A stretch of DNA of 62,961 bases, counting the filler, from Perkinsus chesapeaki ATCC PRA-425 (taxonomy: Eukaryota; Protista; Perkinsozoa): NCBI GenBank assembly GCA_013115145.1. It is 4 parts of 4 records of this genome, joined end to end, with 100 filler letters (N's around TTAATTAATTAA, not from the genome) between each part and the next. Parts side by side here need not be neighbours in the genome. Positions count along the whole stretch, not along the records: positions 15,641 to 29,261 come from JAAPAO010000778.1; positions 29,362 to 37,061 come from JAAPAO010001014.1; positions 37,162 to 62,961 come from JAAPAO010000518.1; 1 more part is not named here. The stretch is one strand, 5' to 3'. The notes beneath the pieces are model-generated. The model ran no database searches, had not been told where the DNA came from, and saw only the letters and a list, made by a program, of their open reading frames with translations. Below are positions 17,936 through 51,724 of this stretch, one piece after another. How positions within the stretch are numbered: position 1 is the stretch's first letter; every line of letters begins with the position of its first letter. A program made the translations under genes and the position numbers.

Positions 17936-19830
17936 TTAATCCTTCTTCAGGAGATTGTATAAATCATTAAGACAGGCGGGCTGTTTGTTCTGAAGATATA
18001 TAATGGATGATATGATCATTATTGGCTATATTATCTTACTTGTGCTTTATTAACTATCCAAGTTGGTATGTTACCTTTAACATCAACTTGATTATACATA
18101 GTAACAGTTAACTCATTTGTTGATGGATTAATCTCCATAGCATATCCGGCAAATTTAACATCACATCGAACATAACCAGGAAGGACGCCATTCTCAGGAT
18201 ACTCTAAAATAAATATATAAAATAAATAATGCAAATGAAGGATAACTACTCACCTGGAAGTTCTACGGACTTTGACGAGATAATCCAGAGGTTGTCGTTG
18301 ATTTTCTGCCGTAAAATAGCATACACTGCATCACGCCCACCGACTTTCATCATGCCTGAAATCGATTAGAAATGAACACCAGTGGAGTTCTCGCGGTCAC
18401 CCTTGAAAGCGCTGTAATGTAGATCCAACCTTCTCTCTGGTTCGTCAATAATGGCTCTCTTCAACATCTTACCTGAGACACACTGTCAAAGACAACTTGG
18501 AAAACTGCGGTTGCGAGAGCTTCAATTTTCAAGTGCATTAATTCACTGCATTGAATATGGTAATGTGTGCATCGAATTCTAGGTTTTTAACTCATAATTG
18601 ATAATCAAATACGAAAGCACGCAAGTTCGAATCCTGGCCGCGATAACTCTGAAAATAAGGGCTCACCATCAGCAGTTTGGTTGTCAAATTTAGATCTCGA
18701 TTCGGGGTCCATAAGGATATCCATCAACTTCTGCAAATCAATCTCATTTTCTCCAAAGGAGCGATAGCCCATAACAACCTGCACGCATGCACAAGCTCAA
18801 ATTTGCAGTGATGTGATGCGCCAACCTGGAAGGCGTCGTCGGTCTGCGGCTTGACCATGAGGGTGACTGGACCGGCCTTCCCATTTGGATTGAATTCGGC
18901 CTTCCCTTCTGGTGATAAATAATAAAGGACCTTTCCTTGGGCCTCCATCGCCGCATCCAATAGTTTCTAATAAATATGCACCATCCAGGGATCGAACCCG
19001 CGACCTACCTGTGTCTCAGGCGTTAACGAAGGACCTGTCATTGCCTTCGGGGTCTCCTGAGTCACATCACCAGTTTCAGAAAGCAGCGCGGAGGTACGCC
19101 TACCACTTCACCATTCTCGAGCTGAGGTTGAGTAATAACCGATATACAATCGAAGAAGTCTTCACTCGTCCATGACTGGACATGCGTTAGTCGACTCTGA
19201 GAAAAGCAGCAAATGCGCTGATGTAAGATCTGACCGTCGATCGAACAGGCATGCGGAACGTCTAATTCACCTCAGAGCCTTCAGTGGTAGCAGCGGCTGT
19301 CTCCGCAACGATCGCAGGTTCCTGAAGAAAACACAAAGGTGGATAACAACGAAGTTCAGTCATCACGAAATCTTCCTTCCGGGATTTTCCCGCCACTTGA
19401 AGAAGCAAATGTACTAGCGCGTGAGAGTACCATTTTTTAGCAACTACTCAAATTTCACGAAGCGGGAGTCCGGAAAATTTCCCGGTGAATTTTCAGGAAG
19501 AATGCCAGGCAGTAAAGTTGACCGGGGAACGGCAAGTTAAGCGACTTGACGTTTACATAATAATACGCTGCAATATTTCCCAACAGAAATGCCAATGGTG
19601 GCGTCTGGACAAGGAAAAACCCTGATTTATAGACCTTCGGAAATATCTCGATTTGGGGACAGCCCGCGACACAACGGACGTACATGCTCGGAGTGGCGCT
19701 GTTTCTCGGCAGGGACAGTCAAGTCCGAAACAGCAATCTCAAATTCGAAATGGTTCCCTGAAGGACTTCTTCTGAGCTGTTTAGGATCTAGCACGACTGT
19801 TCGAGATTCCTTTGAAGATGCGCAACCCAT
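17936..19830 (-). CDS. START-domain lipid-binding protein, paralog 1 (N-terminus MGCASS)
   Basis: Spliced exons read GGRDAVYAILRQ..SKSVELP|EYPENGVLPGYVRCDVKFAGY..QVDVKGNIPTWIVNKAQ, the START C-terminal signature. Confidence 0.8.
18967..19008 (-). other. 42-nt intron consisting of a tRNA 3'-half-like sequence (B-box)
   Basis: GTAGGTCGCGGGTTCGATCCCTGGATGGTGCATATTTATTAG. Removing it restores the frame PETQ|KLLDAAME. Confidence 0.75.
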
Positions 19831-20374
19831 TGAAAATAATTTGAACTATTAATGACTTGGGAATCATCGAGTGTTACTCCGCCGGTAGTAACTGTAACAT
19901 ATCAGAGACGGTCAAGAACGCAGGCCTGGGCTCTAGGAAAGCCGAGGGGCACGAAGGCACACCACATGCCCCCAGCCATCCTGCATTTAGCTTTCCTTGA
20001 TTCACTAGTAACATATTTCCTATCGAGTTTTCCATTATCTTTTCACACTAGGAATGCTTCTTAAGCTTCGGGAAACAGATTTTGACGTGGCCGGATCGCT
20101 CCCTCGCTAAATCCGTTTCGAAGCTCTAGTCTGTCTTGCCGGTTAAAGATCCAAAAAGACACAAATTATTTCATCTTCCTTGAAAAGAGAAGAACACAAC
20201 TCATTCGAAGCGTCGAAACTGATGAACTGGATTGCACGACTGCCTCGGTGAACAGCTGAATAAACGGCAAAGATACGACGGCCTTACGGTGATGATGCCG
20301 CACGGGGAAAGATATTTTACGGGTGGCTACATCAACAAGAGCATAAACGTGCACGAAGCTCTGGAACAAAAACA

Positions 20375-22826
20375 TTAGTCCTTCTTCAACAGCTTGTACA
20401 TCTCGTTTAGACAGGCGGGCTGTTTGTTCTAAAGATATATAATGGATGATATGAACATTATTGACTATATTATCTTACTTGTGCTTTATTAACTATCCAA
20501 GTTGGTATGTTACCTTTAACATCAACTTGATTATACATAGTAACAGTTAACTCATTTGTTGATGGATTAATCTCCATAGCATATCCGGCAAATTTAACAT
20601 CACATCGAACATAACCAGGAAGGACGCCATTCTCAGGATACTCTAAAATAAATATATAAAATAAATAATGCAAATGAAGGATAACTACTCACCTGGAAGT
20701 TCTACGGACTTTGACGAGATAATCCAGAGGTTGTCGTTGATTTTCTGGCGCAAGATTGCGTAAAGAGCATCTCGACCACCAACGTTCATCATGCCTGAAG
20801 GGAAAACCGAATGAATGCAGGCTGCTTAACTATGCCCGCTGAACCACTTAACTTCACAAACCTCCACTACTAGCAAATATTTTCATACTTTCCAAAGAAG
20901 TGATGTAACGTACGCCGCACGTCGTGCGGTATAATACCACAAGGCAATCATACGTGATACGTTACTAATGCGCCGTAATAAGTGGTTATACCAAACACGC
21001 AATGATCGACTTATATACACACTGCTGCGTACTGCTCGACAGAATACTCTAAAATGTTTCCCCAAAATTACTCCACGTGGAAGTTCTAGTATTTTCCCGA
21101 GAAGTGTCACCTTTATAAGCACCATAATGGAGGTCTAGTCGCTTATCTGGTTCGTCGATCAAACCTCTCTTCAACAACTTTCCTGAGAAACAAGCACTCA
21201 ATGCCAGCCGGCCATCCGACCAATTGTGGCAAAACATTTTCACCAAAAGTCATTCTGTGACATAAAGTGTTATTGAATTCTCCACACCTGCCTGTCAATA
21301 AATTTCCAAAAGAGTGTCAGAGAAAAGAAGAATCATTCTTCGATGCTCTGCTCGACTATGCCTTCTCAGAGAAAGGACGGAGCTCGGAGAATCGTCAGGA
21401 ACATCTTTTGAATTGTCTCAAGTTCGATCCCCAGGCATGTCATTTCTCTGCGAAAAATCCTTTTTTGCCCGTAAGCCTTTACGATGTTCCAACTAGAGCG
21501 CACTTTCCGCAGTTTCGTTGGTAGCCCAGAGTCAGGGCGTAGCATGTCTTAATAACGTCTGTAGATCGAGTTGGATGATTCGTACGCACGCACAAAGAGT
21601 TAATAACGTGAGAGTACTCTCCGCTCGCTCCGCACTTTTTCACTTACCGTCAGCAGTTTGATTATCGAACTTCTTCCTTCCAACAGGATCCATAAGTAAA
21701 TCGAGTAGATCTTGCAATTTCACCTCGTCGATGCCGAAAGACCGATAACCCATCACAACCTGACACAGCAGTAGTGCGAGGGAGAATGGGAAAATTTCAG
21801 AAATTTCCCGAATTTTCGGAAGCTGAAATATAATTTCCTTTCGAATGAAAAAATTCGACACAAATTGGAGAGAACTTACCTGGGGTGCATCATCGGTCTG
21901 CGGCTTGACCATGAGGGTGACTGGACCGGCCTTCCCATTTGGATTGAATTCGGCCTTCCCTTCTGGTGATAAATAATAAAGGACCTTTCCTTGGGCCTCC
22001 ATCGCCGCATCCAATAGTTTCTAATAAAAAGTGCACCATTCAGGGATCGAACTTGCGACCTACCTGTGTCTCGGGGTCCAGACTCGGCAAAGCGGCTGGC
22101 ACTACTTTCGGTGTAACCTAAGATACTCGTCAATGACAAGCTATCCAAGAAATATCCACACTCACCACTTCCCCGTTCTCCAGCTGCATCTCTGAGATTG
22201 CCGAAACACAATCCGCGAAATCTTCACTGCGCCACGACTTAACGTGAATGAGTCGGCTCTGCGCGCGAAAGGTATCCAGATCAATGCACTATAGAACTTA
22301 CTTCATCATCACCATCGGCATGGGAGTTACCGGCAGTAGTGGGCTCCGCTAAGGAAGCCAACTGAGACAGGATAACCTTATTTGAAATATACCGATAAAT
22401 GCACATAACGATAATTATTTTAATTGTTGTTGGTTAATTATTATATCAATAGAAGTAGAGTTATTGAGAATAAAAAATTTTCCCACTGATATCATAATTT
22501 ACAATTGTATAATCATTATAATATGACGGTCAGCCTGAAGAATGTGTAATATCACCTAAGGGAGACACGAGTAATTCCGCCGACTATATAGTGGTATATC
22601 TCCCAGTTAGATGACTTCTTAATTACCAGCCTACCTGTTTTTGCTGTTGTTCTTGTTGGTCTCCATTATAATCACCTCTATCACTTTGTACTTCCTCTAT
22701 TATCGGTCCTCCACTATAATATGTTGATGGCACTTCAAATTGGAGATGTCTACCAGAATTACTCCTCTTAAGTTGACGAGGATCCAAAACTATAGTAGTA
22801 CTCGACTTGGACGAGGTACATCCCAT
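20375..22826 (-). CDS. START-domain protein, paralog 2 (MGCTSS)
   Basis: Same exon series as paralog 1; the 3' block is nearly identical to it. Confidence 0.8.
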
Positions 22827-22827
22827 A

Positions 22828-22962
22828 CTAGTGAAGGGGATAAAAAAACAACTACCGGGAATCGAACCTGTGCCTCCCCCATGCACAGTTCACCGGGTAC
22901 ACTTGAAACGTTGATTAGACGGAAATACGGTATGAAATAATCAATACGAAGATACGACTTAC
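22828..22962 (-). other. Putative 5'-UTR intron with a tRNA-like 3' part (B-box 22859-22868), directly before the ATG
   Basis: GTAAGT...CTGTGCATGGGGGAGGCACAGGTTCGATTCCCGGTAGTTGTTTTTTTATCCCCTTCACTAG|tATG. Confidence 0.55.
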
Positions 22963-23203
22963 GTAGCATACACTTATAATCATCGAGTAATCTCACTTAG
23001 AGCAATAAAAACTATAATGTAGATAACAGTGCCTATCAAAGTCAAGAAAAAATCTTCATCAAGTCTGGAGTGCATGCTTCGAGCTCAGGAATCACCTGAA
23101 GAAGAGAATCACACAACTATGCGAGCAATACAGCAAAGTAGGCGGGAACACACTACGATAGATCGCAGGTTCGATCCCGGCACATGTCATTTTAAAACTC
23201 ACC

Positions 23204-26200
23204 TTATTTTCCCTTAAGGAAGCCATATAGATTATTCAGACTCGCAGGCTGTCCCTTCTAAAAAGAACTATCGACAAATAAACCGATCCGACCAACTCAC
23301 CAGCCCTTTCAGAGCGACCCATCCAGGAATCATATGCACATTTCCGGCCGGGTTGGCGCGGTTGACCATGGTCACCGTGAGGTCCTTAGTTCTGGGGTCG
23401 ATCTCGATGGCATATCCGCAACAGATGAGGTGGGATCTCACATGGTCAGCGTGCCGGGAGCCTTCTGGACACTCTGAAATACAAGCGATATTTTACTGCA
23501 GTGGTTAAGCTGTGAAACTGCTAACCGAAAGGTATCCGGTTCAATCCCTCCAGTGACTATTTATTACCTGGTACTTCCACCGACTGCCATGAAACCATCC
23601 AGAGGTTCTCATTAATTCTCTCACGTAGAATTGCGTAGACGCAATCTCGCGCCGATACAGTAAAAAGACCTAAACACGGTCTTGAATGCAATGGACCTAA
23701 ACCCTTCAAAAACACTCAAGAAAATGCTACACGTGAAATATATACAGTATCTATAACAAAAAGAAGGGTTCTAGAGCCAAGACCGAGCACGACAATGAGA
23801 ATGGTAATAAGTTTGACTGAAAGCGCAGTTGCAAAAATAACGGCGTTATTTTTCAAAGTGAACGAGAGCACCTGAGTGCATTCAGCATTATTATAACACT
23901 AAACGCACCGAAGCACTCGTTCACAGAACTCCTTAGTAGTGCTGAGTGGTGAAGGTTTATAAGTAAGTTAGAAATACCAAGCTCATTTGTAAAGAGTTGA
24001 GATAGTAGTAGTGCGCTGTGAAGTTTGATAAATATTTCAACATGCTACTTCATAACACCAAGCTCACCTTTAAACTCAGCATAATGGACATCAAGTCGCC
24101 TATGAGGCTCATCTATCATGCCCCTTCTCAGAATCTCGCCTAAATAACAAGACCCTGGTTCGATCCCCGGTCACGACATCTCTCACCTTCCCCAGCCTGC
24201 GGATTATATTTATATCGAGTTGCTGGATCCATCAGCAAGTCCAGCATGAAATTCAAATCGATCTCTTCCGCTCCGAAGGATCGACTGCCAGCCACTATCT
24301 AACCGCCGAACGATCCAGGTTCTACCCCACCGCCGGCATTTTCCTCACCGGAAATGGCTCGCCAGGCGGCGGGTCTTTCGCTATAAGATCGACTGCGCCA
24401 GCCTTCCCAATACAGCGGAACTCTGCTTTCCCTTCTGGTGTTAAATAGTGGAGAAATTGAGCCTGCGCACTTTTCGCGGCTTCCAAGAACTTCTGAAAAC
24501 ACAGTCGAGCTACCCGATCAGGCAGGTTCAGTTTTCCCAAAAACCCCTTCACAACGGATTGACCATCGACAACTTATTAGTTCCTCCGCTTACTGGAACG
24601 CCACAGAGACTTCCACTCGAGCGAATCTTTTGCTACTAAACAACTCACCGTGACCCCACCCCTGGCTGGTGATCGCTATGGCTATGTACTATGCTCTAGT
24701 AGACCACGGTTGCCCAGAGTCTAGTCTGGTACATGTAGAGCAGCTTTACATGGACCGTATTTATATATGCATGGATCAATATAAACCCCCTAAGATAAGA
24801 TTATCTCTGCATTTTGAAAATTGCATAGCATTATCAAAAAAAGTTATTCTTACAAAATTAGACCTGAAACTTTGAGGCTACATCAGATTTAGTACTGTCC
24901 TAACTCTGTGCGAAGGGGAGACTCAAACTCTCATAGACAGCACAGATACGTGGGAAAAATGACTGTGCCGAAAATCTATGGAGGGATGTAGTCGTCATGA
25001 GCCACTTCCTCCACAGGGGTGTTTCTCAGCCATAAACAGGAATTGTCCCCTCGATTAACCGATGAATCTTCGAATGGAGGATCCTATCGCTCCTTCGCAC
25101 TAGCTCCACCCCCCTACCTGCGAGGTCTCATCCAGCTTAGTCTGCACTGGCGGTATGACCTACGGAAATATAAACTCACCAAACCTCCGCGATCAATTCT
25201 CTTACCTCCTCCACAGGGGAATTTCCATGATCCGAAAGACAGTCTAAAAAATCTTCACAGTGCGGGGATATCTGAACGACCAAGAAAAGATTTCTGTGAA
25301 CGAACCGGCTCCGTTATTAAACTGGTCGATGCTCCAATATGTCCCGAATCGGAGTCCCAATGAAACACGGTATTCACTTCCAGACCATTTTTCTCTGCCT
25401 TCAAATCAAATAACTATTCCCTCACAGAAGCTCCTTGATTGCGAGAGATAAGTAGGTATACTCAACATTATGACATATCTATCGCATACAGTATCCGACC
25501 CTATAATACACTCTCTTGGCCATACTAATACTTAGTTCCCTCCAAAATCGCCAGATCCCTCGTAACATGCTCCGTTATTATTCACTCCTTTCTACACCCT
25601 ATAAAACGTTCTACTATCCGCAATTTAGTAAACTGGAAAGGTGTGTTGTTCAATAAGCCTTCGCGGCATAATGCCGACTTAACCGTATCCGGATAAAATC
25701 CCAAACTACCTGGGCATGCGGAGCTTCCGGTAACGTAGACGTAGCGGCCGTAGAGATATCCATCTGACCAACAATCCTTTCAGCAAAGCCACTTCCTTTA
25801 TTTCTGGTGACTTCTACGCGAGAGCGGTATAAAGTAATAAACTCATTATACATAACTTCTCATTCCATCGTCAGATTTTGTCGATAGCCTACACAATGGG
25901 CTCCGCACTCGAGCTCTAGTGCGCATGCCCCCTCTCCTATCCTACTATTTTCCAAGCATCCTGATAGTGATAACTATTCTCAACAAGTGAAAACTCATAC
26001 AACGGTTGCAACCGCGGAGCTTCCGGACTTTCCAAAGCACGACGCGAATATGCATTGCTGATAGGAGAAGCAAAAAGTGGGGAGAAGTCCTACTATTGAA
26101 AAATAAACGAAAGGCACGTGCAACTAGGGCACATGATGACTGAGTAGGGTTGATATTTTGTGGTAGTACTGGTAGTAGCTATCAACAACATTCCAAACAT

Positions 26201-26441
26201 ACTATCCCTCACCGATATCCACACTACCGTTGAGAAATCCCATACCAGTCATCCCTATTACCGCCCTAATAGAGTGCTGCTGCTGATCACCTCCATCACT
26301 TTGTACTTCCTCTATTATCGGTCCTCCACTATAATATGTTGATGGTACTTCAAATTGAAGATGTCTACCAGAATTACTCCTCTTAAGCTGACGAGGATCC
26401 AAAACTATAGTAGTACTCGACTTGGAAGAAAGACAACCCAT
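23204..26441 (-). CDS. START-domain protein, paralog 3 (MGCLSS)
   Basis: Homologous exons (KFLEAAKSAQAQFLHYLTPEGKAEF; LLMDPATRYKY; IDEPHRRLDVHY; PAGNVHMIPGW). Exon 1 is nearly identical to paralog 2. Confidence 0.75.
23487..23559 (+). pseudogene. Degenerate tRNA body (Asn-like anticodon arm, nominal anticodon GCT), antisense inside a START paralog 3 intron
   Basis: GCAGTGGTTAAGC...CTGCTAACCGAAAGGT..GGTTCAATCCC. A14, U33 and G53-T54-T55-C56 fall at canonical tRNA numbering; stems are poorly paired. Confidence 0.65.
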
Positions 26442-26458
26442 TTAACTTGAAGGAAAAC

Positions 26459-26530
26459 AAACAACCCTGTGATTTGAACCTACGTCCATCTGCTTAACAA
26501 CCTTCCCCCATACCACCACGCCATTGCCAC
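26459..26530 (-). pseudogene. Degenerate tRNA body (nominal anticodon GTT) in the putative 5'-UTR intron of START paralog 3
   Basis: TGGCGTGGTGGTA...TTGTTAA...GGTTCAAATC, with canonical spacing if the D-loop is 7 nt. Confidence 0.6.
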
Positions 26531-26670
26531 AACTTCACACAACCCCACTTTCTCTATGAAACGACTGCTCCCTATCAAAACTTACAGGAATTGATCCAAA
26601 ATGTAAAAATAACTTCCCGCTTTGTTGAAGCAGGGAGACTCAACTGAGAAAAATTCATATTAAAATCAAC

Positions 26671-29117
26671 CTAGCCGCCCATGCAGCTCTTCTCCTTCTT
26701 CAAACCCTTGTACATGTCCTGCAACGCTCCTGGCGCCCGAGTCTGAACAACGAAGATTCTCTCCGAGAATGCCTCAACCATAAGCGGATTAAATCCTATG
26801 TATCAGTAAGAGTATTACTAAGTAATTGAATTGATAGTAGTAGGATAGGAATTAATACAGGGTGGTGCGAAAAAGGGCCCATGCCTCATAATTTCCTGGC
26901 GCGTGAGAATTAAGAGTAAAGTATCAACTTGAAGCTCTCGGTGAGCTCTTTCTATTGCTGGGTCAGTCACTTCGGATTGGGCTCTGAGTAATGGCTTAAC
27001 AAAAAAGTCGTTACATAGAGAAATGTGCTGGCAGAATCATATGAGATCAATCACGCGCCAAGAAATTGAGCTATGGACCCTTTCTTCGCATCAACCTGCA
27101 TTAATAAGTATTAATAAAATTAGTAACTAATCAATAGTAAATCACTAATAACCTTCTCATTGATTTTATCCCCACAACTCTGAACCCGCCCCGAGTATGA
27201 CCTGTGCCTTATTAACTATCCAAGTAGGTATGTTGCCACCGATGCTCATTTGACTATACATCGTCACAAATATCTCCCCGCTCCCTTCGTCCTTCTCCAC
27301 CACATTTCCAGCATTCACTATTTTACATCGGACATATCCCGCCAGTACCTCTCCTTCGCCGTAACCTAAAACATTGATAGGTATAAAATATTTACTGAAT
27401 AAAAAGTGGTCGTGTGACACAGACGGAGCCCGCCGTGCCTGGAAAAGTAGACAGCGACACAATTCACACCCCCTCCGTCAAACGCAGGGGAAAATTAATA
27501 CAGCGATTCCTCCTGAGACAATTCAAATCTCCCTCGCACTTCCCTTATCTCACCTGGATACTCGCATGACCGTGATGACATTACCCACATATTATCACCC
27601 ACTTTCTCAACAACCGAAGTCAACACACAATCCCTCCCAGACACGCCCCATTGTGCTGAAGAATGACAACTCATTAACGAAAGTCCTTGGTAGTCTTCAG
27701 TTCCGTACTAGATACTCGTTGCTCATCGGGAACCGCTACGACTTGAGACAATATAGATTTTATCATAGACATTTGGGGACATAAAGCAACTCTCTTCATT
27801 CATCAACTAACTTTAAACCCTCTAGGTAAGTTAAATACTTCCCTCCCCAAACTCCACGTGCAAAGCCACATCATCGCTCCATATCCATACCAATCAAACC
27901 TTACTCTATTCGCTACCCCATGCTTCCCATAGTAGCATGTCTCCCTGGTGAAAGGAGGTGGATGATGAAGAAGTGTAGGCCAATAGGAACAATAGGTTAT
28001 AGTCTCCAAGCCATGATGAATATCGACTGCAACTTCTCCTCAGAATTATCATTTCAAAATACCATATTGAACCCCTTTCTCAATATAAGTACCCTATCGC
28101 CCTCTTAGTACCCTTATAGGCGGCATAATCCAAATCAAGCCGTCGCAGTGAGCCGGTCGAAGTATCTTCATAAAGTCCTCTCTTCTTATGCCCTACCTTC
28201 CAAAATAAGTGTAATTCCTGATTCCGGTTTACCTTGCGCGAATTGACTATCATATTTTCCTTTCCGTTCCACATCGCAGAGAAACTCAACCACCTCCTCA
28301 AGCTCCAGTTCGCCAACACCAAACGAAGCAGTGCCCTTAACCACCTACACAAGCAACGATCCCGGGACCAGGCCAACTAATTACCGTCGAAGATACATCC
28401 TCACTTGCGACATATATTACTAGGATCATGCACTATACAGAATATGCCGGCCGATGTACTGTCTTTCGGAGAGTGACTACAGAACGCAATGAACCTTCAA
28501 AAATACCCCTTCGACAGAGACATGAGATCAATGATCGATTCCATTCATTTGCCCGATACTGCATCGCTGACCGAATAACAATCGACCCGCACACGTGGCG
28601 CATGATCGCTCCGGATTCCTATACCACATGCCCCTATCAACCAGCGCAGTATGATTCCCAATTAGGTCTTCCACGTTTCTAGTCACACTGAGCCCCTACA
28701 GAGCTATTTCCAAGCCTTTACCAAATTTCTCATCCTCAACCCCCTATCACCTGCATGCTATCTCCCCTCGCCGGTATAATAGCCAATTTAACCTTCCCCG
28801 ACTTCCCAGCATCCTTGAACTCCTTGACACCTTCACCGCAATGCCATTCCAATATGACCTTTTGTGCTGCCAATGCCTCATCGAGCATTTTCTAAGTTAA
28901 CTCAGATCATCTACCCATCTTCCCATGTCCCTACCCCAGTGATCTCATCGGTACTCCCCGCTTTCAAAGCAGTCGAAGGGACCTTAATGATACCAGTTCA
29001 TTAGTTCAGGAAATTAGGCCTTACTTCGAGGGAGATTGGGGAGAGCTCCTCAAGTTCGGATATGCAATCGAAGAAGTCTTCGCTTATCCAAGACCGAATC
29101 CTCTGAAGGAGAGAAAC
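26671..29117 (-). CDS. START-domain protein, paralog 4 (5' end lost in gap)
   Basis: SWISEDFFDCIS; KMLDEALAAQK; LAGYVRCKIVNAGN..QMSIGGNIPTWIVNKAQ. Confidence 0.75.
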
Positions 29118-29119
29118 CG

Positions 29120-29261
29120 AGAGTAGCCTAGTCATCACTTAACCCTTATTCCCTATCTTAATAGTATCCAACAACCCCTAGTAGAGTAGCCTAGTCATCA
29201 CTTAACCCTTATTCCCTATCTTAATAGTATCCAACAACCCCTAGTAGAGTAGCCTAGTCAT
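29120..29261. repeat. 63-bp tandem repeat (2.25 copies visible, runs into the gap)
   Basis: Unit AGAGTAGCCTAGTCATCACTTAACCCTTATTCCCTATCTTAATAGTATCCAACAACCCCTAGT starts at 29120, 29183 and 29246. Confidence 0.95.
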
Positions 29262-29361
29262 NNNNNNNNNNNNNNNNNNNNNNNNNNNNNNNNNNNNNNN
29301 NNNNNTTAATTAATTAANNNNNNNNNNNNNNNNNNNNNNNNNNNNNNNNNNNNNNNNNNNN

Positions 29362-30870
29362 TTACTACCTGGAATTCCTTATCATTATCTATTCCTATAT
29401 CAAATCGGCAGGTAAACTTTCTTATCGGTCCTCCACTACCACCACCACCTCTAGGAGATGACGTCTTCGGAGGACTTCTACTCAACTGCTGAGGCGCAGC
29501 ACCTTCACATTAAGAACAAACCATTTATATTCGCCGTGGTATCTTGTCAGCGCTAAAACACAAACCCCTTCATTACCTTCTTCACTCCACACTGCTCGCT
29601 CCTCCGCCCTTCCCTTGTCCTTCGGCGACTGCGACCGCCGCCATGCGTTGTTGCGGTGCGGTCCAGATGACGGCGGTTGGCTCTGGGGAAGCTCTGATGG
29701 TCGCGTGGATCCTCGGATCTTCGAGGAGGTCATCTTCATTGGTGAGGCCGCATCCTTGATCTCGCTCAGTAACCTATGGTCGATAAGGTTCTACGGTATA
29801 TCAAACGGGACCGGAGCACCGCCCTAGTGGATTTGTAAAGATTAAGCCCACGGTGCAAATGCCAATTTATTATATTCCATATCTACACGTTCGCATCTAT
29901 GAAATACCCCAAGTCGCTTGAACGAGTGAAGCTTTGAGTAATATTCCCGAATAAAGAACACCGAATGCGTAAAGCACAGTTGAGCTCGCAACGCCGCCGC
30001 CCACCGTCCCTTATTACCTGCTAATGCCTGCCTCAGCCTTCTCCAGTGTTTCTGCCGTCCAATGAGTTGCCTCACTTAACGGACCAAAAGCTACCAATTC
30101 TAAACGACACAGGGCCGGTGCGATAACACCTCGCCGAATTCAACTCTACCTTCTTTGAGGTTAATGTTGTCATTTTGTGCAAGAGTCTGACAAATATCTT
30201 TAAGATAGTAACTGGCCCCGACCTCCAGGCTCACCTTCGGGGAGGTCCTTGCTGGGAAAGTTCTCGGTGATTGATGTAACCCCCAAACCACACGCAAGAC
30301 ACCGCGGACACCATTGAGCATCTGACAAGAAGTAGTAGTGGTGGTGTTTGTTGTGGTTAGGATTGATAATATTATAATAATTACTTTATCGTTCAAATCT
30401 TGTACAGCATTTTGGGCATCGGTCAATTGTTTATAATAAACATGTGCAACATCCTTCTCTGGACCGATAACTTCAATAATGCTAACTTCACCATATCGTC
30501 TAAATACCTAAAGAATCTTAGCTTCAACCATGCAAGATACAAAACAGCTCAACTTGCCCACCTTTCGCAGGTCATCTTCTGATAATTGAAAGTAATATCC
30601 ATTTCCTTCGACACAAACCGATATAGGAGTTCCGCCCGTTCCCAACCAGCCGCCATCATTCGACCCTTCCAGCAACATCTCATCACATTCGGCAGCTGCA
30701 TTGAATAGTTGCCTATGTGCGCTAAGGCCAGCAAAGAGCGAGGTCGCCTCCGGATCACCTATCACAACGACCGCAACAGTCAAAGGAGTCACAGCAATCT
30801 GATGCGCAGTTTAGTGTACAGCTAAATAGGGAAATGAAGCTTACTATACGGTCTCGCCAAATTCATAAAC
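29362..30870 (-). CDS. RRM + KH-type RNA-binding protein (3' end lost in gap)
   Basis: LSEDDLRK|VFRRYGEVSIIEV..AHVYYKQLTDAQNAVQDLNDK is an RRM. GPIRKFTCRFDIGIDNDKEFQV is the start of an alveolate-type KH domain. Confidence 0.65.
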
Positions 30871-31879
30871 AGAAAAAATAATGACTTCCAAGAAACAGAC
30901 GGACATAACCGAAAATAATAATGCAAGCGGAGCTCCACTGCCGTACCGTACATTCCCGCTCCCTTCAGCCCTCCATGGTGAAGACTTTCGCGCGCCACAG
31001 AATTTCATCATCGACACCGGGTGACTTATCAACTTCATTATTAACATACAGGTAGATATGGGCAGTTCTGCAGCGGCAAGATAAACCGTACAGCTCTTAC
31101 CAGCTTACCGTACGGTTCGGGCCGTGCCGTAGCCATAACTGTGTAATTTGCCCCTATACAGTATATAACTAACAGCGCCTCACTTGCTTATATATAAAAT
31201 AGACTTTCATATTAAGTACAAAAATGGTACTTCCAAGCTGGACCCGAATTTCATTAGGTTAATATTCCTCAGTCAATCATCACCTTCCTCAGTGGCACAC
31301 ATAAACTCCAAAAGCTGCCTTACAATCTCTGTCTGCTGCGGAGATGTCGGTATAACCTAAAAGCAAACCCTCTAGAAATGGCAATGGATCCTCCCCATTC
31401 GTTACAGTTGAGCAGTTAGCCTCCGGAGTGGTAGTGCTAGAGCTCGTGTCTACGGACCTGCCATCGCTTGATGGGCTTCTGCGTCCTGAACCATGGCAAT
31501 ACCGACAATTCGTTATTTCGTATTACCGATATGTCTGACAGTATTGTTAGTAATAGGCTCGCCTGGGTAGGGTGGACGGTGATTAGTGGTCATTCGATAA
31601 ATGGGGGGCTCACTTATGGAGGATGATGATGCTAACGGATCTATTGCATTTTAAAAGTTGCAATAAATTATGAAAACACGTTACGATACAAGTACTAATA
31701 CTAAACTGAAAATTGCTAAGAAATTTCTGAATCGATAAAAATAGTTTCCATCACCAGTATTCTTTAGTTATCGATTCACCGTACGACAACCAACTGAGTT
31801 CCCTTCAAATGCAGCAGCAGCAGCGGAGTCAGCAGCGGAGTTCGCCCTCGAGACGTATTTCAAAAAAGTCAACATAAAA

Positions 31880-31955
31880 ATACCCTTGCCTAGAATCGAA
31901 CCCGAGTGAACACAACGGCAACCCCAATCAACGTTCCAATCACTCCATAGGAGTA
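31880..31955 (-). other. Degenerate tRNA-like element (B-box 31893-31902)
   Basis: TGGAGTGATTGG...GGGTTCGATTCTAGGCAAGGGTA-TTTTT. Spacing is about 1 nt off canonical. Confidence 0.45.
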
Positions 31956-34863: not shown

Positions 34864-35370
34864 AATTGTGTTTTAGCAGCTAAAAATTCCGATAACGTAT
34901 ATTCCCTTACTTCCACCAGATGCATGAGCCACTGCAGGCTGCCAATCAGCCAGTGTCACGCCTTCTAACCATATAAACAATACTCAGACACTATACCCAT
35001 CCACGGCCTCCTCAGGCTTACTAGGAACCAATTCAACTACCCAACTCCTACAGTACCCAATACCAAGATACGCCAATCCTCAAGATAGCCAATCCCCTTT
35101 ATAATTTCATTCAACCAACCGACTACCTTGTCGGCTTCTCAGGTGAAAATCTAATAGGAAATGTCGGACTGCCTTCCTCCACAATCCCCTTGCATAGGCA
35201 ACATGTACTCTCAACCTTGGCTACGAAGAAAGGCTCATCACCCTTCTCAAAACGAGGCATAGAAACAGAGAAACTAATATCATAAATTAATAATACTAAA
35301 ACTCAAGCTTAATTATCGAATAACATGGTCAACAAGCACAAGCTTTAACATGCAACAAAATAACTAACAA

Positions 35371-36695
35371 TTATCTCTTACTCTCCAACTCTCCACAAAC
35401 CTTCTTGATTGCTTCATCAATGCTTATATTATCACCCAAATTGAACCCTTTCTGCCACGCCTCAACACAATCCTCGTCACTATACTCCTTCGGGTTCTGG
35501 ACGCCTCGTTGAGGTGATTTGCAGTAGGGATAAATATCATTCACACCCGAATTGGGCTTGAATATGCCCTCGAGACCTGCGAAGTGACACATCGGTACAA
35601 TCTTGCCATCGAATCGACCAGCTCCCTCTCTATGGCAAGTTATCTCGTTCTTCCTGTACAAACCACTGTACATAGTAGCATAGCCCATAGTTGGCCCAGA
35701 GACTCCCCATCGAAGCTCACACTTGTCACTGCAATATCCATCAATAGACGGATACGCCTTCCAAGAGTCGTAGACCTTCAGGCTCCTGCAAACGAAATCA
35801 ATAGACTTCGCGATGGTGATCTCCTTAGGCACACCAAGCGAGAGCTTCCAAGCGTGGACGCAACCAGCACCCTTCTTGTCCTTGCCAGACTCATTGAGGA
35901 CCCAGTGGAACCACTTGCCAAGAGGCAATTGACCTTGGGAGAAGTCAACCTCGCCACTCAAACCACCGCTGCATTTATACTCGATCTTTTTCAGATCACC
36001 ATCGATAACAATACCCGTGTTAGAGTGTGGGTCCTCGAGCTCGCACTTGTACTTGCTACCGCCAACCTCCTTAACATTACTCAACCAACCCCTATTGTAG
36101 TGTGGCATCTTAAGTGGCTCTCTTTCATAGTCAACAGACGCAGCACTGGTTGTAGTGGATGGGGACGAAGACGACTGACCAGAGTTGGAATATGACGAGC
36201 TGCGCCTTTCCGACGAGCGACCCTCGGATGAGCGGCCTTCAGATTGGCGACCTTCAGATTGGCGGCTTTCAGAGGACCCACTTTGACGAGATGACGCAAG
36301 ACTGAAGGCACCACCACTACCGCCAGCGAGACTGCTGCAGAGCTTGGAGACCGCTTCACCAGGAGTAACGGTATCGGGATAACCAAGTTGCTTAATGGAA
36401 CCCTTACAGTCATTAGAGCTAGCAAACTTCTGAGCAACACCATTAGGGAGGGCCTCGACGCTCTTGGTGCCGGTCTTGCCGTTGCCACAGTCGTACTTCA
36501 CACCGTTCTTAGTAATACGAACGTAGGGGGGAGTGTTGAGGCCGCCCGACACGAACAAGGTGCACTCGCCGTTTTGCTTCCAAGTATGCTCATAATAAGG
36601 GACCTAAATAGAGGTAAATATACGCCTATAAAAGTAATGCAGCTCACAGCGGTAATGGTAGCTGTCAGGAAGAGGGGCTTGATGTAAGTAAACAT
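35371..36695 (-). CDS. Secreted protein with three copies of a 4-Cys domain and a Ser/Arg-rich linker
   Basis: Signal peptide MFTYIKPLFLTATITA, then a 44-nt intron, then a long exon. Repeated C..C..C..LC/VC spacing; SEGR(Q/S) 15-bp repeats near 36205-36280. Confidence 0.75.
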
Positions 36696-37161
36696 TGATG
36701 AAGGAGGTAGTAAAGGGGATAACTTATTAATAATAATACCGCAAGTACATAATTGATCTATGTAGTCTCCTCATTGTAACTCTTAAACTTACATCTATGA
36801 AAGATCAAAGTTAAAGAGGATAAAATATTAAACATATAAATGTAACAATAACAATCAATGCAACAGTGATTGCAAAGAAGAATCGGCGATCGTACTTCCG
36901 TATTGCTTCGAAAACAACAGAGCTCGCCATGAAAATATGTCGCTCGCCATAAAATTAAGCGCTCGCCCTGGTAATCGGCGATGTTTTCAGTTCGGTGAAC
37001 TGCGAGTTCAGAACACCGGACCCTGCTGTTTGAGATGTTGCGAGTATGCAAGATTACTTGANNNNNNNNNNNNNNNNNNNNNNNNNNNNNNNNNNNNNNN
37101 NNNNNTTAATTAATTAANNNNNNNNNNNNNNNNNNNNNNNNNNNNNNNNNNNNNNNNNNNN

Positions 37162-37413
37162 TCGCCGTTCACAGGTATCTTATAATATAGTGCTTTTCCT
37201 AAAAGTGATGACGCCTTAATGGCACGAGTATGTTAAAGGTTCTGTCCTACTCTCCTGTTGTAAATACATACTGTCCAACATCGATCGTTCGACTAGGCTG
37301 CCATCAAATGCCCGCGACATTGACAACGCGTTTTGAGGGAGTACGACGACGACGATGGCGATAATGAGCTGTATGAGCAAGTGCACTGTGGGCTGGGTGT
37401 GACGTGACGCCAT
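37162..37413 (-). CDS. 5' part of a putative secreted or membrane protein (runs into the gap)
   Basis: MASRHTQPTVHLLIQLIIAIVVVVLPQNALS has a hydrophobic leader. Confidence 0.3.
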
Positions 37414-37642
37414 ATCGTGACTTGTAATGGCTAAGTGTGAGATGAGTGGCGTTGTTATTGACAACCAAAGAATACAGTTATGAGATAAGAAAAGCATCTT
37501 GCATTGTGCAGAACTCTATGGTTACTCCGACTTATCAACGCCTTTTAAGATATATATATTGTGTAATATGGATATACATAATGCTTAAATGACGATTAAG
37601 AATTAATAAAATGCATACGTCAACCAATAACAGCCGCTGTTG

Positions 37643-40600
37643 TTAGAACTCCTCGCACATGAGAACCTTTGAGGGATCCGATTTAGAGCAGAGATTGTGA
37701 AAGACTTACGAATTTATGACCAGTCTCATTGGAGACCCATCGGCACGCATCAGCGACGTCAGCTTGCAATCTTGTATTGCCGCAAAGGTACCTCAATAGA
37801 CAAGACCAATTAATCCCCCACAGAAGGTCGACTCCTAGCCTACACCCATCGTGTCGGTGCCTTGAAAGTTTTGTTAGCCTTGTGGGATCGACAGTATTCA
37901 CCGATGGTGATACTTGTAAAATCTTGCACCCAGCAAGGACGACCAAACCGTATCGGAATACTGTTGCTCTCGGCGGCCGACTCGCGTGTAGACTCGGAGG
38001 TTTCAGAGTCAACTATTGACGTATCGTGTAGCATTGAAGATGCCGTTGGGATATCACAGATGAATGCGTGCCTGATGGAGGAGGAGGACGTAGTGCGTCT
38101 AAAGGTATGGTCTACTTGTTCTCCTGTTCAAAAGGTGTCTTAGCAGTAGCACTCTGAATGCAAATAATCTTCTGTAAACTCTCATGGAAAAGGAACGTCG
38201 AGGGTTTTTGCAGCTGTAATGGCTGATAATGACGTTGCTAGCGTGGAGTCAGGGGCAAGTCAATGAACTCACACCGACGGCTGCAGTGACGTGAAGTCTC
38301 AAGTGGACCTCTGTCAGCCCTGGTAGGGCGGTACTGCCTTTAAGCAGCATTCGCGATGCTGCCATCGATAGCTGCTTCAATATCGATACTCCAGTGAGGA
38401 AGTCACCAGCATTTCGAGTGAGCCAATAAAGCCATACCTTAGATGAACCGAAGATATATTTTTGTAAGTTAAGTTTACCTTCTTTTTTCTTCCAACATCT
38501 GCTGCTTGTTCTCCAGATGCTTTATGAACAGCAGCCTTCTTAAGCATAGCATCAAGACTGCTGAGGAAGGGTGTAATACCGACCCCAGCACCAATGCATA
38601 TGATAACTTCTTCTCCATCGTCATCACCATCCCATACTTCCCCTCCAGAGACTGAGTTATCATGTCGACCCTTTTCTATATCATCGCCGCCGTCGCCGTC
38701 ATCCTCCTCACTAACGCACTCCAAATCACGAGTCTGAGTAGCGCCGACTTCATCCTCCGATAAATCCACATGTAGCATTTACACTGGCACTTTGCTTACT
38801 CCACCATCTCCGTGTTAGTTTCCGCTTAAGTGTAGCATCCCTAGGCTCACGAACACCCATAAAATCGGCCTTAATACTCTGAGCTGGCGCACAGAACGGG
38901 CCGTCGAGCTTGACCATTGGGAAATCTGCGGGTCGGCCTTCGCACCTGTTGAACTCGTTGAAATACAAAATCGACAGATTTGCATCTAACCTTTGGCGAA
39001 GCTGCCGTGTCCAATCGCCTTTGGTATCAACCAACAGCCTGACAAATCCGGTACCCAACGCAGGCCAATTTGCAACACTAAATGGATGCCATTCGAACCA
39101 AGATATTTCGGGGCACAACACGTGAACATACATCCTAAAGATAAAACATACATTCGCCATATCGCCCATACGAGCTACCCTGGACGACAGCGTCTCAGGA
39201 AGCTTTCTTTCGCAGCTATATCGATACTTAGGAGGTCTGAACTAACACTCTCCGCTCTTGCTATTGAAACAAGACCATGAAAGTTACGTCGGATCCTCAA
39301 GAAAAGGTACCTATTTAATGATATAGCTGGAGATAAACGGGATTGGAGTTTAGTACAGTATACATATAGGAAGAACAAGAGGGACAACGAGTGGCAAGCC
39401 GTGGCCCAAGAGTTGCATAGACCCATGCACCTAAAAGAGCAGGGCTGTGCCGAGAATTGAACTCGGGACCTCTCGCACCCTAAGCGAGAATCATACCACT
39501 AGACCACACAGCCTATACTGATCGCATAAGCAGTAAACGTGCCGAGCTTTCCGAGCTTACATAGAGCAAAATGATATAAAAGGCCATACTGGCTCCATGA
39601 ATGAGTTGAAACGTCTTGTAATGTGCCCACCGGAACTTCTTGCGTGAACACCAGCTCCTGGAGGATATACCGTTTAAGAAACACATGACAGAGACACATT
39701 CCGTACATGATTCCGAGAAGCAATATAAGAACAATTCCAGACCAACCGACAGTGCTTAAAAAAATATCCACTACCGTTGGTGTTGATGTTAATGGGCAAG
39801 GTGGATTGATAGGGAACAATGGTGGTAATATAGGTTTGAACCCTGGCTGGGCACAGACTAACACCTACAGAAAACAAATTGAGAAGTTTCATGGGATAAA
39901 GAGCTCACGGAGTCTAGTATCCCTGGTTTGGTGGTAGCAAATACTGGTACTGTTCCGATGAGATGCCCAAAAACGTGTATCTGGATGTGTGTGAGGTTGG
40001 ATCACTTGAGAAGCTGCATTACGAATATGCTAATCCCCAACATGTACGCAGAATGTACATGAATTGACAGAGAATACAGCAAAGGTTTATATTCCGTGAC
40101 TTCATATATGAAAGTCACCAATTGGCGGCTCATAGTAGCAAAAAGAACGATACTGTACAGTAGGGTCGCCATCGCTCCACCTCGAGCGAGTAGCAGTGGC
40201 CAACCCAAGAGGGAACCGGCTGGACGCCCGTACCTTAGATAAAACACATCATGTCCTGACTGGAGGGGGGGAGGGGGGCTTCACCTTTTTACCTTACGTA
40301 GAGGCCATATGCAAGTGAAATAGATAAGAATGTTGAATCCATTATAACGAAGCATGTCTTCTTAGCGTCCCATGGTTTATCCATACCAATTAAAGCTAGG
40401 AGACGTTTCCATTGGCGTGATGACCAAGAACACTGAGCTGGTCCTCCTCCCTCGTCCGTAAGCTCACCACTGCCATCAGACTTGGTACCAATCCCGGGAT
40501 CACTCCCAATCCTAAACAAACTTACAACAGCACTGTCAAATCTCTTGTCTTACTTTCCTAATATACTAGCCTCAATCCGTTTATTATTATTTCCCATTAT

Positions 40601-42073: not shown

Positions 42074-42649
42074 TGGTGATTGGCCAGCAGCAGATGTTGT
42101 CGTTGTTGTCTGACAGGCATGCCATGGGCCATGACCCAGTGACAGTATTGTCATTAAAATGTAATATAACTGCCAATTGGACTACTTCACGGTGTATAGG
42201 AAGGCTAACTGAGGAAGGTACGTTAGTCGTTACCACTTCATCTTAGACTTCCCACCCAGGTTGCCCCAATATCATTCAATTCTGGATTTTTGCATCTACC
42301 ACTACAATGCATCCTCGATTGTGATATTTACATCAATAATCAAGACTAGCTCCAAGTGAAGCCGACAGTCGAAGTAAGGATATGCCATCACGAACTCTGT
42401 TGCCAGCCTCATCCAGAACGCTCAATCTCCCTCCAGTATCCTTATAAGCTCTACACCAAACCCTTTTGGGTGCTCCAGAGAGATACTGCGATACTGTTTT
42501 GTGCAATCTGTCCCCATTATGACCAACACGACAGCATACTATTAATGATACAGTACTAGGATAGAAAACCCGTTCTAGAGTGACGGCAAACAACTAATAG
42601 TCTATCAATATAACGATCCTAGTTTACAACAGGTCTAGTGGTACACTCA

Positions 42650-45600
42650 TCACCACTTCCACCGATTACTATATCCTAAAAATGCCTTCACCGAGGATCG
42701 AACCCACGACCTTTACCTGAGTATCCTTTCCCTTTCCTTTTAACATGAAATCCTTGTTCATCCACCTCTGCCTTTCTTCCCTCCTCCTGTTCGCCATGAC
42801 GTGCCTGCAACCTAGCGATCCTCCCGAAAGGACCGCGCGGCGGCCTCACCCTAACCTCCGGGGCATTTCCATATTTTCGTGTCGTCGTCTTGTACAGCTG
42901 CCGATTGCCTCTACTCTGGGGGCGGTGATAATCAGGATCATTCCGCCATGAAGACGATGACCCATTGCGGCTCGCTGATGTCTGCTGGTGCTGCTGTGGT
43001 GGCGGAGGGGCTGGCGGGCTTCTCCTAATAGTTCGGGCATTCGTCAATGCCTGGTTAAACTGCTGCATGTTGCAGACGACATCTACCCCCAACTCCGGCT
43101 GAAAAGGCAACATCAAACAAACACCGAAGCCCAGCAACAGCAGCAGCAGCCTACCTCATCACATCCCTCAACATTATTGCTCACCAATCGATGACCAGGC
43201 AACGCCTCAATACACTCTTTCGAGGCGACATTGATGCCTTCCAGCATCGTCAGACAACAGAATATGTCGTACCTGAGGGGAAGTGTTGAAGTATTGGAAG
43301 CGTACATGGCTACCTAAGTTTGGCATCTCTCAGTTGTACACCACGTGTTGCCCAGGTCCACGCTCGACTCACTGCCATCCATGTGGTAGCATCATCAAGC
43401 GCGGGATTCCGACAAAAATTAACAGGCGACTCGTTTGAGTTGTAATAAATGAAACTAACAAGGAATAGAACCTCCGCCCTTGCTCATACCAAACCGAAAC
43501 GCTAACCACTAAACAAATACTTACTTCTCCCTGATGGTCTCTAAACTGTTATCATGATATGTTCCCCAATTATGGGCAGCTCTATCTATCGCTTTCCGGG
43601 GATGGTCAAACTCCCTCCTTCCTCGAGCAGATTTCTTAGTCGAGAACAGCTTTTCAATCGCACTCACTTTGGTCCTCGGATGATCCAACAACTGAAAAAG
43701 ACACAAAAAATACAAAAAGGCGGAGCGAAGCAGACTGATCAATCCTCTTCCTCCTACCGCAACCGCTCTTCGCATTCCTTGCATGAGCCTCTCCATCCCT
43801 CTTGGGCTCACTCCCAAGAGCCTGAGATTCTCGAAGGGATCCGCAATCGCCAACCAGGCACGACGACGCCTCAGACTTGTCAACGCCTCGATTGTCGTTG
43901 GAATGTGCTGCTCGTCCCCGTCATCTCCCCCTACCAAACGAGATAATCAAAACCAAGGATTAATATAAAAAAGAGTCATCGCTTACCTAGCTCCACACGG
44001 GCTAGCATCTTGCTCAGCTCGCTTTTGAAATAAGCCTCTTTACTGACCCTATGATCGACTGATCGAATATCAACAACATCATCATAACTGGGAAAGACAG
44101 ACGTATAGAAGTCGAAGAACTCATACAGCAGCCGAGACATACTGGGCACGGGTCTGAAGAGATCGTGGGTTGGAACCCGGCACAATGCATTTTAATTAAA
44201 TTACGCTCGAGAGTAGCGCGGTAGGAAAAAGCGCTTGAGAGCTTCATTCGGGTCAGTGACGCCACTCGAGAGCCAATCGAAAAAGTAAACGTGGTGCTTT
44301 TCAGAATCAACATATCTGAAAATAAAAATATAAAAGCGACCTATTCCATGGCGACCTAGTGCTCTACCTGTCGATAATCCATTCCTTCTTAACATTACGG
44401 AAACATCGCGGATCCTGCAATGACGGCAGTATACCCTTCTGCTGCAGGAAAAATACAACCAGCAAGACGTAACTGACATAATAATCATTATCACTGAAAA
44501 TGCCTGTTGCGCCGCCGATTGATGTTGACATCGACAGACACTATTTCTCAAACCTGGAATGATCGAGTTAAGATTGACTTTCACCCCAAAATTGTGAATT
44601 CAGTCATTTCACATTTTGAAAAACAACAAGAGTGAGCGAGTCTCTTGTCCACAGGCTCCAAAGAATCTCACGTAAGCACTCATAAGTATTAAAGTTAACA
44701 ATTAGCTACTCAAATACTACTACTAACCTATAAAGTATGGGTTTAAATTATAAATCATCTTACAAATGAAAATACCTCTACACTTTGTATGAAACTATCA
44801 CATAGCCGTTTATATGAGTATCACCAATTTGTTCTTACAAAACTTCAACTCCTAACTTTTTCTCGTTGGTATTCTATGCTCAGAAATGTGGAGGTTATAT
44901 TATTTTCTAAGAGGATTTGCTATCTGCTATCTTATAACATCTATACCACTTCGATTTGACCCATATACATTCCCACCTATTTCCCCTTAGCACTTCACCC
45001 CCTCATGCGAAAGTGCAGTACAAGGTTATTAAGTAATTAAATAGGATATATCTAACAAGGCCTACTACTGCCGCCATCTTACCTATAACTGGACAATGTG
45101 CCATTAAGTGCATCATTCACATCTCTTGTTTTCGCCCAATGTTTCACTAATACCACTAAAGTCCGTACAATCTACCACACAACGTCACTGCGCCACGAAA
45201 TTATCTCTTACCTCTGGTCTGAGCATAGCATAGCATCTCAGCAATTTTGAGTTGTAAAGTGGGATTTGGTGATCGAACGACAAATTGAATTCCACTTTCT
45301 CTTTTTCACCATCTTCCCCTGAGACACCACTAACATCATGTCCGCCCTGTAGCTCCCTCAGTTTAACGCTCATATTCCCTCACCGACTCGGCACACTAAC
45401 CGCCGCGTCCTCAACACTGGGAAAGCTGCAGAAGGCGACTTTGTGAATTTCCATAACATCCAAATGGCTAATTCCTTCCTCGCCATGATCATTTACACGG
45501 CGAGCCCACACACAGCTCACCTATCGCTTCCTTAACCAACAGTAATATCGGTACCCTGGCTGTCACCACCTCGTTGACACCATAACTGAGTAGATTCGCA

Positions 45601-51679: not shown

Positions 51680-51724
51680 CTCTGATCAGCTTTAGCTTAG
51701 AGACTAAGCTAAAGCTGATCAGAG
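51680..51724. repeat. Perfect 21-bp inverted repeat, 3-nt loop
   Basis: CTCTGATCAGCTTTAGCTTAG-aga-CTAAGCTAAAGCTGATCAGAG. Confidence 0.9.

Follow-up and report, generated by a model that had tools for sequence, protein, structure and literature searches.

Decayed tRNA genes with retained B-box cores in short introns of Perkinsus chesapeaki

We describe here a set of tRNA-gene relics in the short introns of a 62,961-nucleotide stretch of the genome of Perkinsus chesapeaki ATCC PRA-425 (the window), a member of a genus of shellfish parasites. The window consists of four contigs with linkers of N between them, and all counts below refer to this window only. The set runs from an intact tRNA-Pro gene through decayed full-length copies to 3' halves, and what is kept in it is the B-box, not the fold. 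We give a probability of roughly one half to the idea, drawn from the sequences, that these are old tRNA-gene relics kept as B-box sites at the level of DNA, similar to the extra-TFIIIC (ETC) sites of yeast, with their T-tract serving the 3' splice site when they lie in sense orientation. A sequence-only reading had proposed that a tRNA 3' half and its RNA polymerase III (Pol III) terminator provide both splice signals and thereby a route to new introns. The tRNA origin is borne out, but the two intron positions that were tested appear to be old rather than newly made.

Relics of tRNA genes and their B-box cores

Our gene models cover four START paralogs (START1 to START4), a pyrophosphatase, a ferric-reductase-like gene and a TUTase-like gene; these 7 genes comprise 82 GT-AG introns, obtained by spliced alignment with three introns set by hand. 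The introns have a median length of 50 nt and sum to 9,651 bp, and the exons to 10,168 bp. The homologues of the window genes are Perkinsus proteins; P0001 and P0005, both named as proteins of P. chesapeaki, align at 100% to the window once it is spliced.

ARAGORN and Rfam call a single tRNA, tRNA-Pro(AGG) at 39442-39513 (56.9 bits), which lies intact within a 130-nt intron of the ferric-reductase/NADPH-oxidase-like gene (39431-39560, minus strand), its T-run preceding the acceptor AG. This gene served as the reference for the tRNA register, in standard tRNA numbering. A T-loop pattern occurs 19 times in the window (5.8 +/- 2.0 in 50 shuffles), and exact GGTTCGATCC occurs 6 times (0.07 in 30 shuffles). 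When the intact tRNA and one paralogous copy are set aside, 9 of the remaining 17 matches have Y72-A73-T74 at the tRNA register, compared with 0-4 at neighbouring offsets from -8 to +8 (p ~4e-9, for a pattern chosen after looking). A relic matrix built from 15 matches and scored by leave-one-out, with a threshold of 14 bits and 0.35 chance matches expected per window, finds 13 matches in the 82 modelled introns and 0 in exon (p ~9e-5), with 5 more outside the models. The intronic matches are 7 sense and 6 antisense; one of the 13, at 43471, becomes exonic under the window's own annotation. Two further antisense relics with broken cores (24299-24348 and 22259-22301) were missed by the matrix and found by alignment. 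The same element is present in sense and antisense, in longer introns and outside introns, and it forms a size series. At its head is the intact tRNA in its 130-nt intron; introns of 107, 100, 94 and 83 nt contain full-length copies that have decayed, and those of 41-51 nt contain 3' halves, of which two more lie in introns of 194 and 465 nt. Being tRNA-derived, in register and unable to fold, the relics have the character of tRNA pseudogenes or gene fragments, and their GGTTCGANTCC-like B-box consensus in the absence of an intact Pol III gene is that of an ETC site.

It is the contrast between stem and box that carries our interpretation. On RNA folding, 0 of 8 relics are better than shuffles (z from -0.9 to +1.1), whereas the intact tRNA gives z -2.2. 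Among T-stem pairs 49-51 of 14 relics, 13 of 42 are Watson-Crick and a further 9 are G.U, close to the 14.9 obtained when partners are shuffled among relics, and none of the relics has 5/5 Watson-Crick pairs over the full T-stem. If the ancestors were paired, this loss implies a change of 28-44% per site. B-box cores, counted across the 82 introns independently of the matrix, behave differently: 11 are intact (one of them the intact tRNA) versus 1.0 +/- 0.9 in shuffles, 27 have one mismatch versus 21 +/- 4.5 (7 of the 27 arise where the same relics are read on the reverse strand) and 161 have two mismatches versus 185 +/- 13. Were decay uniform at 30-40%, each intact core should be accompanied by 2.9-4.5 cores with one mismatch; these are not in excess, and the expected tail of broken cores is therefore missing. 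Outside the B-box the relics are on average 41% identical, about equal to their identity with the intact tRNA-Pro (6-12 of 19 positions), and they are therefore not young copies of a single master. The retention of an intact core upon decayed stems suggests that the DNA is likely kept as a TFIIIC-type binding site.

Three of the mini-introns from which the analysis set out are confirmed in sequence and coordinates, namely the phase 0, 42-nt intron of START1 (18967-19008), its 43-nt paralogous counterpart in START2 (22021-22063) and the phase 1, 41-nt last intron of the TUTase-like gene (42676-42716). All are GT...AG introns on the minus strand and consist mostly of a sense tRNA 3' half plus its terminator in exact register (G53 at 18997, 22052 and 42703, respectively). 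Excision of the START introns restores a contiguous alignment to the START proteins of P. olseni and P. chesapeaki, and GT-AG ends and frame restoration, as expected of U2-type spliceosomal introns, hold for all three. The TUTase intron is supported by a pair of P. olseni isoforms (see below), and the protein then ends GYSNRWKW*; the window annotation (P0005) has the same donor with a distant acceptor. A frame for the last exon ending ...KGKDTQ is ruled out, as P. olseni conserves GFHVK and its isoforms need phase 1. Taken with their flanks, the two START mini-introns are 92% identical over 75 nt and represent paralogous copies, so the named set counts as two independent cases. At a fourth site, 50753-50808 (plus strand, 56 nt), the relic is real (G53 at 50761) but the intron is a candidate only: its excision leaves the frame open, its donor has T at +3, as in 3 of the 82 modelled donors, 27 nt separate base 73 from its AG, and the gene beside it (49900-51100, plus strand, with an apparently intron-split open reading frame (ORF) at 50216-50566) had 0 homologues in two protein searches.

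Contigs of sequencing run X6 were taken as RNA by guess; those of run X2 are DNA. Runs X6-X9 contain small shares of the query words, and no reading of habitat or expression level is taken from them. Of 41 splice joints in the contigs, 15 are listed. The antisense relic intron 18473-18666 is shown to be spliced by an RNA contig without mismatches. For 18967-19008 the evidence is indirect: two X6 contigs end at 18968, which fits splicing because the AG is common to exon end and intron end, and a joint over this intron is absent among those listed. Among the listed joints none belongs to the introns at 22021, 42676 and 50753, and no RNA evidence came from 37162-52200, whose introns (TUTase, tRNA-Pro and 50753) are predictions.

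Splice signals and the age of the intron positions

Of the proposal that the tRNA supplies both splice signals, only the part concerning the T-tract survives: in sense relics it lies where the 3' pyrimidine tract belongs, and the intron of the intact tRNA-Pro has the same layout, with TTTT directly before AG. That the tRNA provides the donor and the AG as well is not supported. Base G53 lies 12, 12 and 14 nt into the three named introns and 16 nt into that of P. olseni, and because this depth varies the GT falls on different, unconserved positions of the anticodon stem. All four START introns at the named position begin GTAGG, the two relic-free ones included, and such a start is common in general (11 of 82 modelled introns). 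The AG of the named introns lies 7-11 nt past base 73, in sequence that is not tRNA, and where relics are antisense (6 of 13) the tRNA gives neither signal. In the stretch before the AG, sense-relic introns hardly exceed other introns in T content (6.1 versus 5.4 +/- 2.0). The A of the T-loop was considered as a branch point and finds no support, since by eye neither strand reading fits the branch-point consensus yUnAy.

The idea of recent gain fails at the positions tested. Six intron positions are exactly common to all four START paralogs and a seventh agrees within two codons. Identity to the P. olseni protein is 74% for START1, 46% for START3 and 45% for START4, and this divergence makes it likely that the positions predate the species split. 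The named START position is among those common to 4/4 paralogs, and it holds a sense relic in two of them and none in the other two: START3 has a 625-nt intron there (24493-25117, minus strand) and START4 a 43-nt intron (28892-28934, minus strand), beside which RNA pieces stop at 28891. At one further START position three paralogs carry an antisense relic, and at two positions START3 alone carries one. Contigs of DNA from a second sample hold the introns beginning at 18967, 23096, 23474, 24140 and 24299 without gaps.

The second case appears to extend to another species. Two P. olseni TUTase isoforms of one gene (P0007 and P0019) share 1000 identical residues and then differ in a manner that fits only a phase-1, 44-nt GT-AG intron at the same place. 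The peptide translated from the retained intron back-translates to a T-arm with a score of 30.9, which 0 of 1500 null peptides reach (maximum 19.5). Of 20 bases fixed by this peptide, 14 match the window (7/8 in the B-box and 7/12 elsewhere), the proteins being 70% identical. Target-site duplications (TSDs) are not seen: junction repeats average 2.15 nt in the 13 relic introns and 2.38 nt in the other 69 (p 0.73).

Further relics and neighbouring features of the window

The remaining TUTase introns with relics include two with decayed full-length sense copies on the minus strand, one of 83 nt that is nearly filled by the copy (47887-47969) and one of 100 nt (47436-47535). A 70-nt intron modelled from the P. 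olseni protein (43455-43524, minus strand) has a weak sense T-arm at its end with one core mismatch; the acceptor of the window annotation, at 43479, would place this motif in exon. A 51-nt intron is filled by an antisense 3' half with C56 changed (44154-44204, plus strand), which is 81% identical over 36 nt to a relic in START3. That relic is a decayed tRNA copy, antisense, in the 107-nt last intron of START3, which was set by eye (23096-23202, plus strand); it is at 23194, just past the T-run, that the sequence of 7 run X2 DNA contigs departs from it. START3 also has a 94-nt intron filled by a decayed full-length antisense copy (23474-23567, plus strand, the gene being on the minus strand), a 47-nt intron filled by an antisense 3' half of which a weaker sense reading also scores (24140-24186, plus strand), and a 50-nt intron with an antisense 3' half bearing one core mismatch and a 1-nt deletion (24299-24348, plus strand). 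On the plus strand in START1, an antisense 3' half lies near the donor of the 194-nt intron 18473-18666 (G53 at 18625). The corresponding 465-nt intron of START2 (21183-21647, plus strand) has an antisense 3' half in its middle (G53 at 21422); 24140-24186 occupies the same position. A 43-nt START2 intron (22259-22301, plus strand) holds a probable, further decayed antisense relic with a broken core, 90% identical over 20 nt to that in 23474-23567.

Outside the modelled introns there is a sense 3' half upstream of START2 (22847-22876, minus strand), where the AG 22852-22853, just past the T-stem of the relic, is the joining point for a spliced-leader-type sequence. A decayed full-length copy with approximate limits (26459-26531, minus strand) lies directly upstream of the probable START3 trans-splice acceptor. 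A 3' half between START1 and the pyrophosphatase gene (17816-17845, plus strand) is antisense to both, and another lies in a region without a gene model (31881-31910, minus strand). Spliced-leader-type 5' ends are present on RNA contigs and resemble examples in an excerpt of PMC3101222.

Several other features of these contigs were recorded. A 12-mer, GCGGAGCGAAGC, has six exact copies within 7 kb (41024, 41931 and 43720 on the plus strand; 46592, 46715 and 47782 on the minus strand), all in modelled TUTase-like or ferric-reductase-like introns and in both orientations, and 7 copies at <=1 mismatch compared with 0.13 expected; it overlaps two words that we take to be GC-GNA-GC mini-hairpins. 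Two different short TUTase-like introns share an identical 26 nt (45183-45208 and 48135-48160). The annotated P0005 (40292-48306, minus strand) fuses the TUTase-like gene with the 5' part of the ferric-reductase-like gene that lies downstream; the P. olseni isoforms P0019 and P0016 point to a gene of its own for each. The START paralogs contain near-identical patches (17936-18336 versus 20375-20775; 22671-22826 versus 26286-26441), including whole introns of up to 100% identity, and these patches adjoin unrelated introns, which suggests patchy gene conversion. A 334-bp intergenic segment (19903-20236) is skipped in a run X2 DNA contig, and very deep repeat contigs occur in the bin; a polymorphic mobile element is possible. 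At 51048-51122 there is a 37-bp inverted repeat with a 1-nt spacer and 95% complementarity, and a second pair of 50 bp spans 54522-54826. A Pfam scan of 150 ORFs named fragments alone: an aspartyl protease (52611-53753, minus strand), a subtilase (56738-57499, plus strand), a leucine-rich repeat (59190-59612, minus strand) and, weakly, an RNA recognition motif (30103-30507, minus strand).

Explanations, known systems and implications

Under our preferred explanation, copies of amplified tRNA genes would have landed in existing introns and spacers and died there as tRNAs. They would then have been trimmed as the introns shrank toward their usual size, leaving the B-box and the 3' tail, and a putative TFIIIC or similar factor would bind the retained B-box DNA. 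Copies in sense orientation would also lend the intron their T-run as its pyrimidine tract. Several observations weigh against this explanation. The decay argument assumes paired ancestors, and G49.G65, present in 4 of 14 relics, could mean a master element whose stem was never paired. There is a three-member antisense subfamily (17825, 23169 and 44169) with 12-14 of 19 positions identical outside the B-box, and the 7 run X2 DNA contigs share the 23169 relic up to its T-run. Relics with broken cores do exist (44154-44204, 43455-43524, 24299-24348 and 22259-22301). The relics are clustered by contig (0, 10, 1 and 7; p 0.002), none at or above 14 bits being found in 1-15540 or 52000-62961 as compared with 10 in the 13.6-kb START contig; this clustering and the two unrelated words that recur in TUTase-region introns would suit local copying as well. 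The cross-species case is one intron, deduced from annotated proteins with Ser taken as TCN, and its contrast of 7/8 to 7/12 is small; a shared position would fit either order of arrival, intron first or tRNA copy first. Our gene models are spliced alignments with three hand-set introns in 7 genes only, and a search for literature holding both TFIIIC and Perkinsus found none.

The main alternatives differ in what they make of the core. Neutral debris, that is, fragments of an amplified tRNA repertoire, SINE-like (short interspersed element) repeat copies or templated patches that survive where exons would not tolerate them, would suit the large tRNA copy number of P. marinus (excerpt of PMC3706591), the antisense subfamily with its shared run X2 contigs, the clustering by contig and the other recurrent words in the same introns; a search that finds relics through the B-box is also biased toward intact cores. 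We think this explanation unlikely, since neutral decay predicts several one-mismatch cores for each intact one and neither one- nor two-mismatch cores are in excess, the 41% identity outside the B-box does not fit young copies of one master, and the P. olseni orthologue of one relic intron appears to have kept its relic. A role in RNA, either of the T-loop motif in the pre-mRNA or excised intron or through small RNAs made by Pol III from the relics, seems to us quite improbable. The order of B-box and terminator-like T-run is retained and full-length relics have traces of an A-box, two of the four intronic A-box matches being the intact tRNA and the relic in 47887-47969. Against it, the two orientations are equally common, relics do not surpass shuffles in folding, the AG is preceded by hardly more T than elsewhere and intronic A-box matches are not enriched (4 versus 2.2; 6 versus 4.9). 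The same A-box scan gave no enrichment of 5' halves, although the A-box is a weaker pattern and 5' halves may escape it.

An older form of intron founding, in which tRNA copies or 3' halves entered exons at an early date, came to be spliced out by means of a GT close by and the AG that follows the T-run, and later decayed in part of the paralogs, is about as doubtful as neutral debris. Many introns are nearly filled by their relics, with base 73 at most 21 nt from the intron end it faces in 12 of 13; an unrelated sense pair, START1 and TUTase, can be aligned over nearly its whole length (84% over 31 nt, E 2e-4), and an antisense pair is 81% identical over 36 nt. Where several paralogs have a relic at one position, its orientation is the same in each; the AG just past the T-stem serves as the trans-splice acceptor at 22853, and START3 is the only paralog with an intron at the place of its last one. 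Yet the register of the donor varies (12, 12, 14 and 16), relic-free paralogs have the same position and the same GTAGG start, relic introns do not exceed the others in the length of junction repeats, and all unrelated relic pairs fall short of the E 1e-5 cut-off used for introners. Antisense copies give no splice signal, copies also lie in mid-intron and outside introns, and the intact core is left unexplained. Origin and retention are nevertheless separate questions: tRNA copies may have founded some introns in ancient times, and founding and retention may both hold. A stronger proposal, that selection maintains a dense network of intron-embedded TFIIIC-type sites derived from dead tRNA genes and that terminator-bearing copies also founded part of the tiny introns, is in our view rather unlikely.

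Four known classes of element invite comparison. According to an excerpt of PMC3395662, ETC sites have the B-box alone with a conserved 10-base 3' extension; budding yeast has eight, all intergenic, and fission yeast has chromosome-organizing clamp (COC) sites. In so far as this excerpt describes them, the Perkinsus relics are similar in having a B-box consensus without a functional tRNA, conservation that reaches 3' of the box, apparent retention between species and no need for an RNA fold. They differ from the eight intergenic sites of yeast in lying in about one sixth of the modelled introns and in deriving plainly from whole tRNA genes (variable loop, base 73 and T-run). By this analogy of sequence, we put it at about even odds that they would work like ETC sites made from tRNA pseudogenes, the Perkinsus TFIIIC sites being putative. 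An ETC site proper is one that binds TFIIIC but neither TFIIIB nor Pol III.

Introners are recognised by intron-intron BLAST matches of E <=1e-5 that extend to both boundaries, in non-paralogous genes and with at least four members, with TSDs or terminal inverted repeats (TIRs) in part of the families (excerpts of PMC9860276 and PMC12130899). The relics recall them as similar sequence in the short introns of unrelated genes of an aquatic protist, in both orientations and near both ends. In contrast to introners as these excerpts describe them, the likeness is that of generic tRNA 3' halves, there are no TSDs or TIRs, the tested positions appear old and copies also occur outside introns. Clustering of short introns within the window, a local form of the genome-wide check proposed for the sequence-only reading, leaves the relics short of the introner threshold: in an all-vs-all comparison of the 82 introns and the candidate, the best unrelated relic pairs had E 1e-4 and 2e-4, and the only non-START pair below 1e-5 was a 26-nt non-tRNA word in two TUTase introns. 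Inverted repeats of at least 25 nt were not found inside relic introns. On junction repeats and intron-versus-intron similarity in this window we reject a recent introner family. The main texts of PMC9860276 and PMC12130899 mention neither tRNA nor Perkinsus, though their supplements could list Perkinsus.

The relics share decayed tRNA sequence, a recognisable B-box and T-run, dispersal and presence on both strands with tRNA pseudogenes and tRNA-derived SINEs. The latter are copies of one master with a tRNA-like head, an unrelated body and a tail. Here no SINE body, tail or TSD was seen and sequences diverge past the T-run; acceptor-stem strands vary between relics, decay is uneven with the core spared, and mean identity outside the B-box (41%) is as low as that to tRNA-Pro. 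Intron-hosted tRNA genes are likewise a known class, to which the intact tRNA-Pro within its protein-gene intron belongs; what sets the present case apart is the short host intron of 130 nt, a T-run lying directly against the acceptor AG and the abundance of decayed stages. A scan of metagenomes with the START alignment gave 240 pattern matches and 0 confirmed relatives, and neither a search for look-alike stretches in other indexed genomes nor a further word search returned any. We found no published description of tRNA relics in Perkinsus introns, in a literature search that was thin on subscription papers and Perkinsus genome papers.

The series from intact gene to fragment shows that tRNA sequence can take over the content of an intron with no intron being newly made, and a test of age is therefore needed before shared intron motifs are read as gain. 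Were founding to be shown for part of the positions, tRNA genes could be counted among the sources from which new introns are known to arise; our literature search found no such report. Dinoflagellates are known for unusual chromatin and transcription control. The Perkinsus branch adjoins that of the dinoflagellates (excerpt of PMC3101222), and if B-boxes are selectively kept they would offer a mappable candidate for the positioning of chromatin factors in such a genome. Should the network exist, the share of introns seen here, about one in six, would mean thousands of sites per genome. Compared with the eight sites of yeast, this would to our knowledge be the densest ETC-like system.

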